Virus record (IMG/VR): IMGVR_UViG_2061766007_000718
Strand: one strand, 5' to 3'
Source: an uncultured virus (IMG/VR IMGVR_UViG_2061766007_000718)
Taxonomy: Duplodnaviria > Heunggongvirae > Uroviricota > Caudoviricetes
Length of the DNA: 20,000 nucleotides
Under the pieces are notes generated by a model. The model was not told where the DNA came from, did not search any database, and worked only from the letters and a program-made list of their open reading frames with translations. The stretch's first letter is position 1. The number at the start of each line of letters is the position of its first letter. The position numbers and the translations under genes were made by a program. Shown here piece by piece: positions 5,814 to 20,000 of the stretch.

Positions 5814-8800
5814 TCAGTTCATTCTTATTCCGTTGTTAACAATATCTTGCATATAACCGTTCATCGCGTCAATCTTTCCGCTGATGTTCTCTTGGAATCC
5901 TCGTATGTCGGACACATCGCGCATTATGCTTGTGCTGTTCTGGTAGAGCCTTTCAACCGAACCGCTAATGCTTGCCGTGAACATCTGAACAGACAAGAAC
6001 CTGCCGTTANNNNNNNNNNNNNNNNNNNNNNNNNNNNNNNNNNNNNNNTTCCCTTCGTTCCTTCAAGCGCTATGTCGTTGGCAAGTCCCATAGATTCCAT
6101 AAGGTTGGCGTAGAACTTTTCTCCTCGTTCTGCTAATGCCGTAATCTTGTTTTGGAATTCCACTTGCTCCGCTTCAGAAAGTCCATCACCGGTTATCTGT
6201 TCGTAGTAGTCGTTGAATATGCCCTCGAACTGCTTGCTCATAAAGTCTGACAGAAACTTCTGCTTGGCAAAGTTCTTTAGCATATCCTCCCAAGTACCCA
6301 TCGCTTCATCAGCAGCACTTGTTCCGTTCTCCCACGCCTTGATTATTGCATTGCCGAATGCAGTGACAGCATCAGAACTTGTGGAATATCCAGTAAGCAT
6401 TTCCATACGCCTTTCCTGTTCGTCTGTAATCTTCTTCTGGGTTTCAAGGATTCTTTCATCTATTTCGGCAATCTCACCTTCCAGTTGTTCCCTTTGCTCT
6501 GTGGTAAGATTTCCTTTTAGCAACTCCTTCAACTCTTCTTTTTCTTTATTGAGAGCCTCGATTTCTTCATTAAACTTTCTCTCAATGAAATTGGAATAAG
6601 CGACAGCGGTCAAGCCTACGCTATTGTCGCGAACATTTGATAGCCTTTCTATCATATCTGCAATCTTGTCAACCGCCTCGTTACCTTTTTTTTCTAGAGC
6701 GTCAATATGTTCTGTAAACATAGCATCAGACCATTTGATAGTATTGCTAATCAGATTAGTGACCATTCCAATAGCGGAAGCTGCTGCTCCGACATAGTTG
6801 CCTTGTGCTGCATTCTGAATGATATTAAGACCATCGGAAAACATCTGGAGACTTGTTTCCATTGCCACCTTTTCAGAATCTGTCATATCATCAAATGCTC
6901 CGGCTAAATCCGCTACGGCATCAGTCATTTCCTTGATTTTGCCTATGGTTTCGTCTGTCGTCTTGCCAAATATCTTCTCCGAAATAGACGTATCTTCTTC
7001 TGTCTCCTCCTGAGTATTTGCTATCGCTTCATTTACCGCATTCAATGCCACTGTCAATTTATTAACTTTCTCTACATCATCTTCATCTGTACAATTTTCG
7101 AGTTCTTCAGCTAAATCATTAGCAAGTTCTATCATGCTTTCTAAACTAACTCCAAGTGTTCCAGTAAGTATTAACGATAATTGTCTCACCTGCTCTGGAT
7201 CAAGACTTTCATTCAATGCTTCTACTTGCTTGTTGTAATCTTTTGTAACTGCATCAATAACTGACTTATTTGCTCCATTCTTTTCAAGTTTAGCAATCTT
7301 ATCATTCTTTTCCTTGGTCAACTGGACATACTTGTCGGCATAGGACTTGTATTTGTTCAACTGCTCATCATAAATTTTGGCAGTCTCTTCCTTAATTTTA
7401 TTTGCAGTTTCAACCTCCTTGTTGTTAGATATTTTTTCGTGCATTTCTTCTTTTGTAAATCTGCCTTGCTTCTCCCTCTGTTCCGAAATGTACTTGTCTA
7501 TTTCCGACTGCACAGCAAGCGGGTGCTGCTTCTTATAGTCGTATGTGAGAAGTTCAACCCACTTGTCATCTATCTCCTTGTAGGTGGCATCAAGAGCTGC
7601 AATCTCCTTGTCCTTTGCCTCGTTGAGTTGGTCCGTAATCTGCTTTACCCTGTCGGCTAGATACTTTGCAGTTTCACTCTTCTTGTTCTTCAATGAAGTT
7701 TCAAAGAATTTATCCTGCCTTGCTGCATTGTCTTCCAGTGACTTCTGATACCTTGATGTTTCTTCGTCAAGTCTCTTCTGTTCTGCCGTTATACGCTGGT
7801 TGAGGTCTTCAAGTTTCTCTTTATCTTTTTTCTTTCCGCTATCAGCAATATTGTCCTCGTTGGCATCTATCTTGGCTCTTTCTTTTTTCAAATAGTCAAG
7901 ATAATCGGTGCCGTATGCTTTTAGTTTCTCATATTTCTGACGACCACTTTCTGCAATCTGCTTGTCAGAAGATGCCATTTGCTCAAAGGCTTCCTTGTAA
8001 GCCTTTGACATCTTATCCAATTCATTTTCATTCTGCTTGGTACTTGCAGTAAACTTGTCGCTTGCATCCCTCGCCTCGTCAAGCGGTTGCCTTAGATTGG
8101 AGAGTGTTTCCATTTCCGATTTCAACCCTGCTTCAAATGCTTCTGCAGTACGACCTAAATCGGCTTTGATATTCGATACTACACCTTGAATTCCATTGGT
8201 AGCTGCCCTATATTCTTTTTCATCAGTAGTCCTCTGGGCGTGCATATAATGAGCAAGCAAATCTACCTGATCTTGCGTAACACCATATTCTTCCTTGAGG
8301 TTTTCTAATGCTTCCTCCCTGTCATCATAACTAAGACCGTTGATTCTTCTGATTTCTGTTTCAACAGCAAGCTGATCTGCTCTTGTTTCTGCAAGCCTCT
8401 TGGCATATTCATCGGCAATGGCTTGAGACTTTGCGACTTGCATCCATACAGTTGCCAAATCCTTTACCTTGTCAATATTTTTGATGAGCCAATCGCGAGA
8501 AACCCCCAACTTTTTTGCTGTACTATCTACGGCATCAGTCCATTCCCTTGTTCCTTTCTTAGCCTTGTCAATTGTGGTAATGTTTCTCTGCATCTCAACT
8601 ATATCCTGCTGGACGCTTCGTACACCTTCCGACCTTGCTTCGTTGAGAAGTTGCTGATTCTTTATCCTCTGCTGTTCAAGATAATCGCCACGCTCTTCCT
8701 CGTCGTTTGCTTGAACAATAAGTGTAATGAGAGTAACTAATGCCGAAATTGCCGCCAATATCCAACCTATCACAGGTATAGACTTAATGGCAACTCCTAC

Positions 8801-9795
8801 TGCCTTGATACCACCGACCAATCCGACTGATGAAGCTGTAGCGACATTCTCTCCGGCTGCAAATGCCGTGGTTGCTGCCGTTCCCGATGCTGTTNNNNNN
8901 NNNNNNNNNNNNNNNNNNNNNNNNNNNNNNNNNCAGTTTTCATTTTGGTCCACAGAGTACTCAGTTTCATTCGCAAAGCACTCTCTTTCTGCAGTTGGTT
9001 CTGGATGACTGTTAGGGAATTTGTCAAGGCTAATACTCCCTGCAACTTTGTCATAACAACAGCAAGTTCCTCCGAGTCTTCACCAAACAGAGCCATAGAA
9101 CCCTGAACAGCGCCAAACGAAGCTGCCATAAGGTTTATTCCTCCTACAGCAGCATCCAAGTTGCCAGTATCACTTGCCGTGTTCTTTATCGTTGAGTTGA
9201 CATCATCCATTGTGTCGCGAAGAGCACCAGCCTTTTGTGTGAGTTCATCAATCTTCATTTTTAGAGCCTGACCTTCCGCACTTGCCTGTTCTGCAGCAGA
9301 CATTTCTCGGTACTTCATAAGCAGATTGCCAAGTTCTATTGTGGTTTCACGCAACTTTGCCTTTAAGGTTTCATCTGCACTACCCGAAGCCATCTTGTCC
9401 CGTTGAGCATTGAGTTCTTTAAGCTTGTCGTACTGCTCATCGTATTGCCCGGAGAGTTGTATTTCAGATTCTATCAGATTCTTGATGGCGTCTTCCGTTT
9501 TCTTCATATCGATATAAAGGACACTACCAGCATCAAAGTCCCCTGCTGCAAATGCAGACTGCAGTTCTCCAAGTCTTTTTTGAAGCCTCTCAAGTTCCTT
9601 GTCCTTATTCTCCAGTTCTGTGCTTGTGGCACTCATAGCATTCTTTACTGATTCTATTTCCTTGTCAAGTGCCTTGAATGCATTAGAACCGGAAGTTCCT
9701 ACAGAATCAAGATTCGCCTTTATTCCAGCGATTTCTTCCTGCATTTTCTGTATGTCGAACTTAATTTCAAATATGAGTTCATTTGAATCTGCCAT
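5814..9795 (-). CDS. Tape measure protein (~1325 aa; appears as three ORFs because two N gaps shift the frame)
   Basis: ATG at 9795 (MADSNELIFEIKFD). Long helical coiled coil with hydrophobic IKSIPVIGWILAAISALV and GNYVGAAASAIG segments, ending NGRFLSVQMF...IVNNGIRMN. Frame changes coincide with the N runs at 8895-8933 and 6010-6048. Confidence 0.88.
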
Positions 9796-9819
9796 CTTCG
9801 TAATGTTTAAATTTCCCAA

Positions 9820-9857
9820 CAAAAGTAAAAGGACGGTGTTTTAAAGTCAAACACTTT
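9820..9857 (-). promoter_or_regulatory. Phage promoter for the TMP operon, carrying the shared box
   Basis: Minus strand AAAGTG-TTTG, 20-nt spacer, TACTTTTG. Shares AGTCAAACACTTT (+ strand) with 15952-15964 and 16415-16427. Confidence 0.75.
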
Positions 9858-14788: not shown

Positions 14789-15181
14789 TTAATCGTGTTC
14801 AAAAATTAAGGTTGGTACAGCAGACTTCAAAGCACTCTTGATGCTCGATACAGGATAAGGACCTGCAACCTCGTTGACGCTTCCTGCGGTCATAATGCCA
14901 GCGAATGGCTTCGATACTGGAATGTCGTTTACGAGAACACCAATGTACTCGTGATTTGCTGGTAGTGAATCGTAAGACGAGCCACTAATAGGCATCGGCT
15001 TNNNNNNNNNNNNNNNNNNNNNNNTAATCACGTGACCTGCTTTGAGAGTGTCAAGTGAAACATTGTCGCAATCCAAAGTACGACCGCCCTTGATTCCATC
15101 TACATACTTTCTAATTACCACAGAACCAGAACCCATGTGCAGTTCTGTTCTTTCTTCGTTTAAATTTACAATCTTAGGCAT
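14789..15181 (-). CDS. Head decoration/capsid cement protein
   Basis: 130 aa between scaffold and MCP; VVIRKYVDGIKGGRTLD...KPMP...YIGVL...KPFAGIMTAGSVNEVA. Confidence 0.7.
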   Translation of the reverse strand: MPKIVNLNEERTELHMGSGSVVIRKYVDGIKGGRTLDCDNVSLDTLKAGHVIXXXXXXXXKPMPISGSSYDSLPANHEYIGVLVNDIPVSKPFAGIMTAGSVNEVAGPYPVSSIKSALKSAVPTLIFEHD

Positions 15182-15926: not shown

Positions 15927-15966
15927 CAAAATTACACGGCTGATATTTAACAGTCAAACACTTTTA
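15927..15966 (-). promoter_or_regulatory. Phage promoter for the head operon, carrying the shared 23-bp box
   Basis: TTTG (15955-15958), 20-nt spacer, TAATTTTG (15927-15934). Box TATTTAACAGTCAAACACTTTTA at 15944-15966. Confidence 0.8.
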
Positions 15967-16176
15967 TTTTTCTATGAACCAGCCATCGTGAAGCATCTGT
16001 GCACGGCTGATGTTTTCAGCGAGCAGTTTGGACTCTAATTCCTTTCCACACCTGTCACAGAATCTTCTTTCAACTATATCATACCTGTAATGGCTGACCT
16101 TTATTGCAAATCTCTCGACATAAACCTTGTGTCCGAACAAACGGCAAACAAGTTCCTTTAATCTGTACTTCAACAT
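15964..16176 (-). CDS. Small Cys/His phage protein (DUF1660-like)
   Basis: 70 aa with CRLFGHK...CDRCG motif. Confidence 0.65.
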   Translation of the reverse strand: MLKYRLKELVCRLFGHKVYVERFAIKVSHYRYDIVERRFCDRCGKELESKLLAENISRAQMLHDGWFIEK

Positions 16177-16179
16177 ATA

Positions 16180-16371
16180 TTATGGTTTTAATGAATAATT
16201 CCTGCAATCATTCTCTTTGTCAAGAAACTGCGACCATTGCTCATATTCGCATTTGCAAAGGAACGGCTCACCGTTGCAGTCTAGTTCATGGAGACAATAT
16301 GAGTGAACACAACTGCGGCAAGTCTGGTGTTTCTTATTTTCTATATGGCTTTTCGTCATTGCCTTTGGCAT
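16180..16371 (-). CDS. Small Cys-rich hypothetical phage protein (possible Zn-binding)
   Basis: MPKAMTK...CRSCVH...LCKC...DCRNY; ATG at 16371 lies just downstream of a promoter. Confidence 0.6.
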   Translation of the reverse strand: MPKAMTKSHIENKKHQTCRSCVHSYCLHELDCNGEPFLCKCEYEQWSQFLDKENDCRNYSLKP

Positions 16372-16388
16372 TGTTTTTAATGTCACGG

Positions 16389-16429
16389 CAAATTTAAGGG
16401 TAATAGTATTTAACAGTCAAACACTTTTA
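16389..16429 (-). promoter_or_regulatory. Phage promoter carrying the shared 23-bp box
   Basis: TTTG (16418-16421), 21-nt spacer, TAAATTTG (16389-16396). The box at 16407-16429 is identical to 15944-15966. Confidence 0.8.
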
Positions 16430-16470
16430 GATTTAAGAAAAAGAAAGCCACCTCACTCTAATGTGGAAAT

Positions 16471-16496
16471 AAAAAAGCCACAGCAAAGCCGTGGCT
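16471..16496 (-). terminator. Intrinsic terminator closing the kinase-STAS-PIN operon
   Basis: Minus strand AGCCACGGC-ttt-GCTGTGGCT followed by TTTTT, 27 nt after the PIN stop. Confidence 0.8.
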
Positions 16497-16522
16497 AATA
16501 TGAATTATAAAACCGCTGGCAA

Positions 16523-17059
16523 CTACGCCTTAACCAAAACTATCGAACTTGATATTGAACCAATGTCCTTATCATCAGAAACAAAGCAAATGCCCCTCTT
16601 ATCACAATAGTTGACAAGATAAGCATCGTTGAAATCAGCAAACTTGCTCATTGAATTCATGACAGATTTGACGTTGATACTATTAAAATCATCAGGCATC
16701 TTGTCTGGAACATTTGATAATATATCGTTTACCTGAGCTTTAACATCCGCCAACGAATCCTCGTATTCCTTTGTCTGTCTGAAATCTCTTTTGTAATCAG
16801 CAAACGGATTTGAAGTACTTCTCTTCCATTGCTCAAATCCGATACGGAGAACCCTGTTTATGTATTCAGACAGAACCATCGATGTAATGAATAAACCTGC
16901 CTTATGGTCAACAATATCACGAAGCAACTTGGAATACTGCTGTTGCTTTTTCTTTTCTGTGTCTGCCATAGGTCCGTAGATGTATAGCCATACGTTGGTG
17001 TCGAACAGATAACAATTAGACGGACTTACAACATGGTCTCTAATTTCCTCAATGTTCAT
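16523..17059 (-). CDS. PIN-domain (VapC-like) ribonuclease
   Basis: FDTNVW, LSEYINR, DFNDA and SDDKD supply the acidic catalytic set. ATG at 17059 has GGAGG upstream and overlaps the end of the STAS gene. Confidence 0.88.
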   Translation of the reverse strand: MNIEEIRDHVVSPSNCYLFDTNVWLYIYGPMADTEKKKQQQYSKLLRDIVDHKAGLFITSMVLSEYINRVLRIGFEQWKRSTSNPFADYKRDFRQTKEYEDSLADVKAQVNDILSNVPDKMPDDFNSINVKSVMNSMSKFADFNDAYLVNYCDKRGICFVSDDKDIGSISSSIVLVKA

Positions 17060-17402
17060 TGATAACCTCCCCAATCATTTTAGAATACCCATTCTTATCA
17101 GAATAGAAAGATTTTGCATTGGTCGTAACTCTCTTTATACGTAAAGCCGTATCTTCGTCAAGATTTTCAAGTTTGAGCATATTTTTCAAATCCTCGCTTG
17201 AATAATCTTTATACAAGTTTCCTATTGCGACATTAAGGAATGCCGTGGTTAACATTTCTACTCCAGCAAAATCCAAAACGACATTCATTCCGTTACGGAA
17301 CGCCTCCATCTCCATCGTGTAGATTGGTTCCGCTTCATCTGGAGTAATGCCCTTATTAAGCGAAATGTGGTCTGTAATCTTTATTATCAACGTATTATCC
17401 AT
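17049..17402 (-). CDS. STAS-like domain protein (DUF4325-like), putative antitoxin/kinase substrate
   Basis: VVLDFAGVEMLTTAFLNVAIGNLY is a STAS/anti-anti-sigma signature; 117 aa from ATG 17402. Confidence 0.85.
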   Translation of the reverse strand: MDNTLIIKITDHISLNKGITPDEAEPIYTMEMEAFRNGMNVVLDFAGVEMLTTAFLNVAIGNLYKDYSSEDLKNMLKLENLDEDTALRIKRVTTNAKSFYSDKNGYSKMIGEVINEH

Positions 17403-17409
17403 TTTTGTA

Positions 17410-18300
17410 TTATAAAAGGTCATTAAAATCTGGTTTTTCAGAAGACATCAAGTAACGCTTTGAATCGTTAAAGTTAAACTTGATATTTACTATTGTTCCA
17501 GGAAACACTTTGTCTAGATTGTGATAGTTGAATTTTCCATTCGCGTACTCTACAAAACCACCAGCAGAAACCAAATGGAGTGCTCCTTTGTTAAGTTCAA
17601 TAAATTCCTTTAACAATGAAAGCCCAAGTCCTCCAGTATTCTCCTTAGTAGTGTTTCCTTCAATAAACGCCCATGCTATGGCTTTGCAATCCGTAACCCT
17701 TTGCATTCCTTTCTTTTCAAAGAAAGTGTTCACATTGTGCGGAATAGTTTCTCCAAGGTCAACAATAGCCATATCAAATGTTGTGGTTTCCTCCTTATAC
17801 TCTCCGCATGAATATACGAAATTCGTTTCTCCATGCATTGCCGCATTGGCATAAATCTCATATATACTTGCAACGAGACTATTACCGACAGTCTTTGTAT
17901 GCGCAGGAAACTTTTGCTTTCCAATCAGCCATTCATCAATATATTTTTTAAATCCTTCCGAATCATTTGTTCCGAAACGAAAATATTTTACAAAATTTTC
18001 TCTTTCAGCCGGATCAGTTGTCTCTTTAAATGCTTGCAAAAAATGATTTCTAGAAAGAATGCTCCTGACTTTCCTGTTAGAAAATCCTATTATCGCAATG
18101 CTTGCTTTGCTGGAAAACCTGTCGAATATTGCACCGACAGCAGCACACAAGTTTCCATCAAACTCCTTACACAAGGAAAAATCAACTTTGACTTCCTTAT
18201 TATGCTCCACTAACTCGGCCATATTAAAATATAACCTTGAAAGTTCATTATAACCGTCTAACGAACTTGTTATCTTATATGGCAATTGTAGTGTACACAT
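17410..18300 (-). CDS. GHKL/HATPase_c anti-sigma-factor-like kinase with N-terminal STAS-like domain
   Basis: N box EIYANAAMHG, G1 IVDLG, G2 TTKENTGGLGL, C-terminal FPGTIVNIKF. N-terminal VKVDFSLCKEFDGNLCAAVG. No His-phosphoacceptor (DHp) domain or TM segment is visible. Confidence 0.85.
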   Translation of the reverse strand: MCTLQLPYKITSSLDGYNELSRLYFNMAELVEHNKEVKVDFSLCKEFDGNLCAAVGAIFDRFSSKASIAIIGFSNRKVRSILSRNHFLQAFKETTDPAERENFVKYFRFGTNDSEGFKKYIDEWLIGKQKFPAHTKTVGNSLVASIYEIYANAAMHGETNFVYSCGEYKEETTTFDMAIVDLGETIPHNVNTFFEKKGMQRVTDCKAIAWAFIEGNTTKENTGGLGLSLLKEFIELNKGALHLVSAGGFVEYANGKFNYHNLDKVFPGTIVNIKFNFNDSKRYLMSSEKPDFNDLL

Positions 18301-18397
18301 GTATTACTTCCGTACAGAAAATAAGGGTTGCGAAAATACAAACAAAGTACGACACAGCAAAAGAAAATCACAAAAATATTTCGGGTGCAGATAACAA

Positions 18398-19576
18398 CTA
18401 AAAATCCGTATGGCTAATGTCATCTTGGATTTTATTATTACTCTGGAGGGCATTATCGCGCAAGTCGTTGAGAATTGCTGTTCGGTCAACCTCGCTGTAT
18501 ATCTGCGTGGTTTGCAGTTTCTGATGCCCGAGCAATCTTTGTATGGTTGTAAGCTGTACTCCCTTTTGCCCAAGCAATGTAGCAAATGTATGGCGTGAAG
18601 AATGGAAGGTTATCTTGACATCCGCACCTATGCTGTCGAGCAGGACGCGAAGTGTAGCGTTTACCTGCGAGTTTACGCCAAGATTCTTCGCCAACTTTCC
18701 AATGTCGCCATACTTGCCTATTATTCCTGACATCTTGTCGCTTATAGGAATTTCAACCTCGTAGCCTGTCTTTACCATCTTCTTTACAATCCAGCCATCG
18801 TGTATGTCTGACTTTCGCAAGGTTCTGATGTCGGAGAACCTTAAACCAGTGTAGCAGCCGACAAGAAACGCGTCACGCACTATGTCATCGTTGCCACTGA
18901 GTTTCATCGCTTCGAGTTTGCGTAATAGGTCTGCTGGCAGATAGCCTTTCTTCGACACCATCTGCTGTATGCGGAAGCGGTCGAATGGATTGGTGTCAAT
19001 TATATCGCGCTTACGCGCCTCGTTGAGCAAAGCGCGTAGAAGTCGCAGACGACTTACACGAGTATTGTGCTGCACACCTATACCGCGCAGATACTTGTCG
19101 TAGCCAACTACATAATTATAGTCTATATCTGTGATATATGTTCCGCTACGGTACTTGTCGAGATCATTAAACAATGTGAGATAATTCCTTTTGGTAAGCT
19201 GCTTGCGTGCACTGTCTTCTATGACATTCATACCAAAATCGCGCAATTTAGCACCAGGCGAAAGGTGACTACGATACGCTTCACGCAACATTGGCAAGGT
19301 CACTACTACACCTCGCTTTATGTATTCCAATTCGATATTCTCAACCTCATGCATAATTTTGTACAATGCATAATTGAGATTGTCGGCAAGTTCGTGATTT
19401 ACTACACAACCATGATAAAACTGGTTTGGCTGCAAATATGTATGGGTACTGAAATAAATGCGACGACCGTTCTGCGTACACTCTATTTGAACGAGTCCTT
19501 CGCCAGACTGATTGAGCCTACCGCCTCTGTTAAAGACGAGCTTGTATCTTACCTTTGTCATGATTTTGGTTAACAT
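18398..19576 (-). CDS. Tyrosine recombinase (Bacteroidetes Arm-DNA-binding + SAM-like + catalytic domain); integrase or invertase
   Basis: Catalytic motifs TGLRFSD, KTG, FHSSRHTFAT, LLGH and TTQIY. N-terminal YKLVFNRGGRLN...VQIE...RIYFST. Alternative ATG at 19561. Confidence 0.92.
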   Translation of the reverse strand: MLTKIMTKVRYKLVFNRGGRLNQSGEGLVQIECTQNGRRIYFSTHTYLQPNQFYHGCVVNHELADNLNYALYKIMHEVENIELEYIKRGVVVTLPMLREAYRSHLSPGAKLRDFGMNVIEDSARKQLTKRNYLTLFNDLDKYRSGTYITDIDYNYVVGYDKYLRGIGVQHNTRVSRLRLLRALLNEARKRDIIDTNPFDRFRIQQMVSKKGYLPADLLRKLEAMKLSGNDDIVRDAFLVGCYTGLRFSDIRTLRKSDIHDGWIVKKMVKTGYEVEIPISDKMSGIIGKYGDIGKLAKNLGVNSQVNATLRVLLDSIGADVKITFHSSRHTFATLLGQKGVQLTTIQRLLGHQKLQTTQIYSEVDRTAILNDLRDNALQSNNKIQDDISHTDF

Positions 19577-19714
19577 ATCTTATTTCTTTTTTGCAAAATG
19601 CAAAAGTGAAGAATAATTCGGGAACAATTAGTAAAAAAACACTTTATCATTGCTATAATCCATTATTCTTCAATATGTTAACCTATACTACACTTTTCTT
19701 TTACATTATAATAA

Positions 19715-19751
19715 TTGCATATTGCTGCAATATTTGTGCAGCAATATGCAA
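19715..19751. terminator. 15-bp perfect hairpin, probable terminator after the upstream ORF
   Basis: TTGCATATTGCTGCA-atatttg-TGCAGCAATATGCAA, 10 nt after the stop at 19761. Confidence 0.7.
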
Positions 19752-19760
19752 ATTTTGGAA

Positions 19761-20000
19761 TTATACAACTAAATCAGCGGCATACCAAACCTTGAGTGTT
19801 CCGCTGCTATTTTGGGCAGCACATTGCGTACTGTTTGAATTAGCGACAAAGGTGATAGTGAGCAGGTTGTTCTCGTTATCGCCCTTCGTTCCGTTAAGAA
19901 TTTGAGCGTTCTGGACATACGAACTTGCGTCACTTCCGCCTACTATTGCACAATACATAACACCTTCAAAAACAGTAAGTTGTCGCACATAGTTCCCGAA
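19761..20000 (-). CDS. Partial ORF (3' end), beta-rich; possibly a tail-fibre C-terminal cassette
   Basis: The frame stays open to the window edge: FGNYVRQLTVFEGVMYCAIVGG...LKVWYAADLVV*. Function is inferred from context only. Confidence 0.5.
   Translation of the reverse strand, partial: FGNYVRQLTVFEGVMYCAIVGGSDASSYVQNAQILNGTKGDNENNLLTITFVANSNSTQCAAQNSSGTLKVWYAADLVV

Follow-up and report, generated by a model that had tools for sequence, protein, structure and literature searches.

Identification of a VapKSC locus

The window analyzed here, a 20,000-nucleotide stretch of an uncultured Caudoviricetes virus (IMG/VR record IMGVR_UViG_2061766007_000718), carries three tightly coupled genes, vapK, vapS, and vapC, which encode a protein combining STAS-like and GHKL kinase-like domains, a small STAS-like protein, and a PIN nuclease-like protein, and which lie beside a tyrosine integrase gene (Table 1). 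An original prediction, made from the sequence alone, took the three genes for a phosphorylation-switched toxin or anti-phage cassette in which the STAS protein holds the PIN protein inactive until the kinase releases it, and it mentioned CapK/CapS-like triads of kinase, STAS protein, and VapC, allowing that the architecture might not be new. The architecture is indeed known: the triads mentioned trace to the VapKSC article (PMC13373217), and the mechanism is essentially the model published for it, to whose proteins those of the window are homologous. The window cassette is very probably a member of VapKSC, and our best overall explanation, to which we assign a probability of about 80%, is that a VapKSC toxin-antitoxin/anti-phage module is carried as cargo by a Bacteroidota prophage. 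With the gene architecture already described, what is modestly new is the setting, a prophage-borne Bacteroidota copy with an integrase in a variable slot.

Table 1. The vapKSC genes and adjoining features, in window coordinates
Feature	Coordinates	Strand	Description
vapK	17410..18300	minus	296 aa; N-terminal STAS-like domain (~residues 1-93) and SpoIIAB-like GHKL kinase/ATPase domain (~101-280)
vapS	17049..17423	minus	124 aa as longest open reading frame; STAS-like DUF4325 antitoxin (by homology) with short C-terminal helix region
vapC	16523..17074	minus	183 aa as longest open reading frame; VapC-like PIN nuclease toxin (by homology)
Tyrosine integrase	18398..19576	minus	adjoins the 5' side of vapK, co-oriented; context, outside VapKSC
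Terminator-like hairpin with T tail	16466..16496	minus	27 nt past the vapC stop
TATTTTTG, weak candidate Bacteroidota -7 promoter element	18371..18378	minus	inside the 97-nt integrase-vapK spacer

VapKSC was described by Chambers, Rani, Min, Villa, and Corbett (EMBO J 2026, PMC13373217; preprint 10.64898/2026.02.02.703251; structure PDB 9z7o), and in the full-text literature searched the name is confined to that article and its preprint. In the account given there, VapK is a STAS+GHKL protein like CapK, VapS a STAS protein whose C-terminal region is short, and VapC a VapC-like PIN protein; 289 vapKSC operons are catalogued, 36% of them near known defense genes (PMC13373217). In the operon of Escherichia sp. 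E4736, VapC is toxic and its D28A variant is non-toxic, and VapS neutralizes VapC in a manner that requires the C-terminal VapS residues 94-116. The S48E substitution in VapS abolishes both neutralization and co-purification with VapC, and in the 3.4 Å VapS2VapC2 structure S48 is buried in the interface (PMC13373217). The same operon protects against phage Bas42 by about 2 logs, an effect for which VapC D28, VapS S48, and VapK F54 are all needed, and the authors propose that VapK phosphorylates the conserved Ser/Thr, freeing VapC on DNA damage (PMC13373217). The main text of that article has no discussion of phage-borne copies; it uses the word "prophage" a single time, of another system, and does not use "mobile." The terms "partner-switching" and "phage defense" occur together in 0 papers of the literature searched.

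Conservation and neighborhoods of the triad

With each prokaryotic species represented by a single genome, a scan gave 210 VapK relatives among 302 candidates, from which the best 80 were taken; a further 12 loci from viral contigs brought the set to 92, with a kinase open reading frame (ORF) callable in 90. These loci represent the nearer part of the family, and the figures drawn from them are not descriptive of its most distant relatives. A second gene was present in 86 loci and matched window VapS in all 86, while a third gene, called in 84 loci, matched the window PIN protein in 80 at E < 1e-3; the four misses comprise one PIN protein by Pfam (E 1e-6), one weak partial PIN, and two short ORFs near contig ends. 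The kinase, STAS, and PIN genes are thus conserved together, and the loci come from Bacteroidota, Spirochaetota, Poribacteria, Nitrospirota, Neisseriaceae, and others. The triad is also known from a plasmid, and the family is broad and strictly syntenic well past the 289 catalogued operons. RefSeq labels the three products "ATP-binding protein," "STAS-like domain-containing protein," and "PIN domain-containing protein," and both PADLOC v2 and Pfam overlook the kinase.

Membership in VapKSC is supported by a shared K-S-C gene order, a shared domain make-up, and similar protein sizes (296, 117-124, and 178-183 residues in the window). Among the genomes named in Dataset EV3 of the VapKSC article are Flavobacterium cutihirudinis DSM 25795, Poribacteria MSPOR6, Bacteroidetes GWA2_30_7, and Deinococcus gobiensis I-0, and the loci from these four genomes (L067, L069, L070, and L176), taken as the EV3-listed loci from the genome names, each hold a full triad matching all of the window proteins. 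The kinases of L067, L069, and L070 match window VapK with E values of 2e-45 to 1e-44, and in BLASTP comparisons the Deinococcus gobiensis I-0 triad matches the window kinase, STAS, and PIN proteins at E 4.5e-34, 7e-11, and 3.5e-16. The window copy nevertheless differs from the listed members compared, being about 25-35% identical to them.

The genes upstream of the triad are varied. They include housekeeping genes, four Methylase_S and five N6_N4_Mtase genes, some phage genes, and single instances of RloB, AbiJ, AbiEii, DUF4435, SLATT, and a Schlafen-like gene, and the defense genes among them fit the published 36% of operons that lie near known defense genes (PMC13373217). An integrase was the largest ORF within 2.6 kb upstream in 0 of 80 triad loci, with 10 further loci having no such ORF, so that on the upstream ORFs examined integrase linkage is not general for the triad, and the window copy, on a Bacteroidota prophage with an integrase directly upstream, differs in this from the other 80. 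The neighborhoods are very different, as for a selfish cassette, a copy is found on a plasmid, and the window locus is by homology a toxin-antitoxin pair on mobile DNA beside an integrase, all of which would suit a module that serves mainly in addiction or stabilization of the prophage or of integrase-linked cargo, with cured cells killed by stable VapC and defense being incidental. We consider that explanation improbable: its classical form needs a labile antitoxin and no kinase, whereas the kinase is kept in all 90 callable loci, and the Bas42 protection conferred by the Escherichia operon is dependent on VapK, on S48 of VapS, and on D28 of VapC (PMC13373217).

The VapS and VapC proteins

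The sole Pfam family in window VapS is DUF4325 (E 8.1e-15), and its best match among solved structures is the "Escherichia VapS" chain, PDB 9z7o_A (E 5.3e-11), over residues 26-123, which include the C-terminal region; a VapS family profile matches the same chain over 114 of 117 positions (E 2.2e-27). In 124-residue numbering, T60, within the TTAF motif, falls on residue 66 of the chain; this residue corresponds to native S48 if the 134-residue chain consists of the 116-residue VapS and an 18-residue N-terminal tag. Position 60 is Ser in 44 and Thr in 42 of the 86 relatives, and is therefore Ser or Thr in every one, while position 59 is not conserved (Thr in 69, Ile in 15, and Ala in 2). The original prediction, which had placed TTAF at the usual phosphoacceptor position, holds for the second threonine but not for the variable T59, and the alignment makes T60 the predicted phospho-acceptor of window VapS. 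The acceptor would be Thr rather than the Ser of the Escherichia protein, as it also would be in 42 of the 86 relatives.

VapC exceeds the Pfam PIN cut-off (E 1.3e-5; 26.2 bits versus 23.6), and the VapC family profile matches the Escherichia VapC chain 9z7o_C over nearly its full length (E 4.1e-12). D25 of the window protein aligns with residue 28 of Escherichia VapC (LVDTNVW / LFDTNVW). Both window proteins are directly homologous to the crystallized pair, with T60, given the tag, and D25 falling on the residues mutated there, S48 and D28 (PMC13373217). The acidic catalytic residues are kept, as had been claimed for the PIN protein: among 80 relatives D25 is found in 75 (with five gaps), E70 in 79, D147, D150, and D168 in 78 each, and D170 in 77, the exceptions being gaps where the call was short or, at D170, two glycines.

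The VapK protein

An AlphaFold2 model of VapK built on the family alignment has a mean predicted local distance difference test (pLDDT) score of 90.4 and a predicted template modeling (pTM) score of 0.89, and a Foldseek search with it recovers GHKL ATP-binding domains with template modeling (TM) scores of about 0.7 when normalized to SpoIIAB. In a wide structural search, the best match to residues 101-280 is SpoIIAB (Z 12.8, root-mean-square deviation 2.7, 133 aligned residues), with RsbW also resembling the kinase domain (Z 9.3), and residues 1-93 resemble RsbS (Z 9.3) and TM1442 (Z 9.2), both STAS proteins. The STAS domain of the model begins at residue 1, which leaves no space for a preceding helix-turn-helix (HTH) domain. 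Of the N, G1, and G2 box residues, E148, N152, H156, G183, G224, and G226 are identical in all 90 relatives, as are W210 and T218, and D181 is kept in 87 and G223 in 85 of the 90. Model and conservation together bear out the earlier description of a GHKL kinase with intact N, G1, and G2 boxes, an N-terminal STAS-like domain, and no dimerization and histidine phosphotransfer (DHp) domain. The protein also matches phrog_3364 (E 6e-39).

Several observations weigh against a defensive VapKSC module working here as published. The 296-aa VapK itself has no Pfam match at E <= 0.1, although HATPase_c is found in 25 of 48 aligned family members and HATPase_c_2 in 8. The three proteins gave no relevant match in PADLOC v2.0.0 or in NCBIfam. 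Taken pairwise, window VapC finds 9z7o_C as its best solved-structure match, but weakly (E 0.011). For Escherichia VapK F54, a conserved aromatic residue of the predicted ssDNA groove, the candidate counterpart is F47, which is Phe in 74 of the 90 relatives; no Escherichia VapK was found among the best 120 of 255 profile-search matches in the protein collection. The published experiments concern the Escherichia sp. E4736 operon and no Bacteroidota copy, and since Escherichia VapK is insoluble, its kinase activity and its activation by single-stranded DNA (ssDNA) were deduced from CapK and from predictions (PMC13373217). That insolubility gives the window copy some value as one more natural homolog for kinase, ssDNA-activation, and RNA-target assays. 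Prophages, too, are usually induced by DNA damage, and a damage-triggered toxin on a prophage is for this reason not obviously pure defense.

With VapK kinase activity never measured (PMC13373217) and the window protein missing Pfam HATPase_c, VapK could be an ATP-dependent partner switcher that sequesters VapS without phosphotransfer, or the locus could be the unexpressed relic of a decaying prophage, as the tape-measure gene, apparently split into two overlapping ORFs, might hint. Both are highly improbable, as the three ORFs are intact with all family-invariant residues present, the acceptor position is restricted to Ser or Thr in 86/86 relatives, as would be expected for a phosphosite, and S48A in VapS abolished protection by the Escherichia operon (PMC13373217). 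Weak additional evidence against these readings comes from one animal-gut RNA library, in which two contigs, 257 and 244 nt long, match vapC (16602-16856) and vapS (17069-17312) with at least 99% identity, although such contigs attest presence only and say nothing on expression level or absence. None of the RNA-library contigs lies on vapK, and those of other runs fall on neighboring genes only.

Proposed mechanism and comparison with other systems

In the mechanism that we favor, VapC would act as a Mg-dependent nuclease toxin, and VapS would bind it 1:1 in a 2:2 complex, with the VapS C-terminal helix covering the active site. VapK would be switched on by ssDNA that forms when DNA is damaged or a phage replicates, and active VapK would phosphorylate T60, which is predicted to sit in the VapS-VapC interface, such that phosphorylated VapS would fall off and VapC would arrest the cell. 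As cargo of a Bacteroidota prophage, the cassette would most likely guard the lysogen population against other phages. We infer the kinase activity of VapK, and likewise the ssDNA trigger, the RNA target, and the function in this host, and the full phosphorylation-release mechanism probably operates in the window cassette.

Three other known systems share parts of this organization. CapK/CapS is similar in pairing a STAS+GHKL kinase with a STAS substrate bearing a conserved Ser and in having ssDNA as its published trigger, and it consists of a DNA damage-activated kinase and a repressor combining STAS and winged HTH (wHTH) domains, located upstream of cyclic oligonucleotide-based anti-phage signaling (CBASS), Bub, and other immune operons (PMC13373217). 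However, CapK carries an HTH at its N terminus and CapS a wHTH at its C terminus, with transcription as the output, whereas the window kinase starts with its STAS domain, the partner is a 124-aa protein with a short helix instead of the wHTH, and the output is a PIN toxin. With no HTH in the kinase and DUF4325 alone in the STAS protein, the window cassette lacks a defining feature of CapK/CapS. The SpoIIAB-SpoIIAA and RsbW-RsbV pairs share the kinase fold and a STAS partner with Ser/Thr at the start of helix 2, but the window kinase has its own STAS-like domain and its cassette does not have a sigma factor as output. Neither a sigma factor nor a PP2C phosphatase, which in these modules resets the STAS protein, was found among the 21 window ORFs scanned, and the third gene encodes a PIN protein, so that defining features of this type of partner switching are lacking as well.

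The resemblance to type II VapBC lies in a VapC-like PIN toxin neutralized by direct binding of its neighbor's product (the PIN.4 group, as described by Matelska et al. 2017, PMC5499597). The window antitoxin has a STAS fold, unlike the DNA-binding VapB proteins of AbrB, ribbon-helix-helix (RHH), Phd/YefM, or HTH type, and VapKSC would release its toxin through a dedicated kinase rather than through antitoxin proteolysis. The gene upstream of the PIN gene encodes DUF4325 and no DNA-binding VapB, which sets the cassette apart from VapBC type II.

Phage context of the cassette

The integrase contains Phage_integrase (E 1.3e-18), Phage_int_SAM_5, and Arm-DNA-bind_5 domains and belongs to phrog_1, while downstream of vapC there are two small ORFs, followed by scaffold-like, decoration-like, major head, and tail genes. 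The cassette is therefore flanked as originally described, by the recombinase and the head module, and the integrase upstream together with the head and tail genes downstream indicates that the prophage setting is real. VapKSC thus also travels on temperate phages of gut Bacteroidota. For context beyond the window we used the nearest genome, G001 (89% of sampled words in common), in which the same cassette lies on a 1.1-Mb contig (L094 = G001:C3:630000-643600). Upstream of the integrase and co-oriented with it are a ParB-like gene, the large terminase gene, an endolysin gene, and an 820-aa ORF, and this gene order places integrase and vapKSC in the interior of the phage genome, with terminase on one side and scaffold on the other, rather than at an end of the prophage.

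For comparison, 80 viral contigs whose major head protein is related (44-54% identity) were collected, of which 77 carry the scaffold gene and 34 the terminase gene. The integrase, vapK, vapS, vapC, the two small ORFs, the endolysin, and the 820-aa protein were found in 0 of these 80. In most of the 34 relatives with a terminase match, terminase and scaffold are separated by about 1.8 kb; the interval is longer in a few, such as L142, L143, L162, and L163, is occupied by small ORFs alone in L102, and by derivation amounts to about 8.3 kb in G001. It is a variable cargo slot. A search for direct repeats bounding an integrase+vapKSC mini-element gave none that was convincing, and there was no flanking att-like repeat. 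A search for distant DNA similarity with 8 kb returned nothing from 50,697 phage records, and neither the window nor the G001 flanks contained a tRNA gene.

That a prophage inducible by damage carries a toxin triggered by damage poses the question of who benefits. The cassette might serve the lytic switch of the prophage itself, with the damage that induces the prophage also activating VapK, and with VapC shutting off host RNA so that phage development is favored, timed, or aborted. In favor of this, DNA damage or ssDNA is the published trigger (PMC13373217), the cassette is embedded between terminase and head genes, and kinase+STAS pairs without a PIN gene stand between repressor and integrase in Javan172 and probably in KIRK (see below). 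We regard this as decidedly improbable, given that the absence of the cassette from all 80 related viral contigs shows it to be dispensable for this phage type, that most copies of the triad lie outside phages, and that a PIN toxin would also strike phage transcripts. A VapKSC module carried as defensive prophage cargo is the explanation that we retain.

The 820-aa ORF (L094:9664-12126), whose last 79 codons correspond to window positions 19761-20000 on the minus strand, has no Pfam or PHROG match, and a 25-nt inverted repeat with 84% complementarity lies past it, at window positions 19705-19761, just before the integrase promoter region. The overlapping ORFs 5924-8953 and 8797-9822 (minus strand, 157 nt overlap) belong to one tape-measure-like family, aligning with positions 7-274 and 999-1296 of phrog_21917, and the gene is either frameshifted, by prophage decay or sequencing error, or genuinely split. 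An N run (8 X) in the decoration-like ORF 14789-15181 (phrog_38330) is an assembly gap.

Phage-borne kinase and STAS pairs

Streptococcus phage Javan172 (L177, MK448860.1 1891-3169) encodes a VapK-like 307-aa "ATPase-like protein" and a VapS-like protein of 114 aa, which match the family profiles at E 3.8e-54 and E 1.9e-24. The pair has no PIN gene with it and is situated between a repressor-type regulator and the integrase of this temperate phage. As described in its report, Francisella phage KIRK carries a 293-aa hypothetical protein and a DUF4325 protein beside its cI repressor (PMC7924643), and pairs of kinase and STAS protein may turn up repeatedly in lysogeny modules, coupled to different outputs. 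Because an ssDNA or damage trigger also usually induces prophages, the cassette could gate, time, or abort the induction of its carrier or of competing prophages, beyond any defense against phages arriving from outside. It is conceivable, though unlikely, that kinase and STAS protein constitute a phage-borne DNA-damage sensor with swappable outputs and that VapKSC is here wired into the phage's own decisions, as is hinted at by the integrase-linked, variable late-region slot and by the PIN-less pairs of the unrelated temperate phages Javan172 and, probably, KIRK.

Gene junctions and flanking signals

The likely starts are ATG 17402 for vapS (117 aa) and ATG 17059 for vapC (178 aa), the shorter forms being favored by homolog alignments, and GGAGG stands 7-8 nt 5' of ATG 17059. 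With these starts the junctions are a 7-nt gap followed by an 11-nt overlap, in agreement with the tight coupling noted originally, while with the longest ORFs they are overlaps of 14 and 26 nt.

Downstream of vapC, the terminator scan finds the hairpin that had been proposed as the cassette's own terminator, with a stem at 16496-16476 of 9 pairs (6 G-C), a 3-nt loop, and the T-rich tail TTTTTATTTC. Terminator-like sites number 3 in 3 kb versus 2.2 +/- 1.9 in shuffled sequences, and because the count matches the shuffles, support for this terminator comes from its position just past the PIN stop codon and not from the count. Upstream of vapK, TATTTTTG resembles what we take to be the Bacteroidota -7 consensus. 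The sequence is present as predicted, but TANNTTTG occurs in the window no more often than chance (19 versus 18.2 expected), and no -33 TTTG was seen 5' of TATTTTTG on reading the sequence, so this element is a positional hint without statistical weight.

Two cysteine-rich small ORFs lie on the minus strand between the cassette and the head module, at 15964-16176 and 16180-16386, with matches to DUF1660 (E 4e-5) and phrog_34745 (E 1e-9). They are bracketed, between vapC and scaffold, by a 28-nt direct repeat whose copies at 15944-15971 and 16407-16434 are 93% identical. On the minus strand each copy holds TTTG, followed about 20 nt later by TAnnTTTG (16389-16396 and 15927-15934), and the repeat looks like a duplicated Bacteroidota-type promoter, with one copy after the vapKSC terminator and the other before scaffold.

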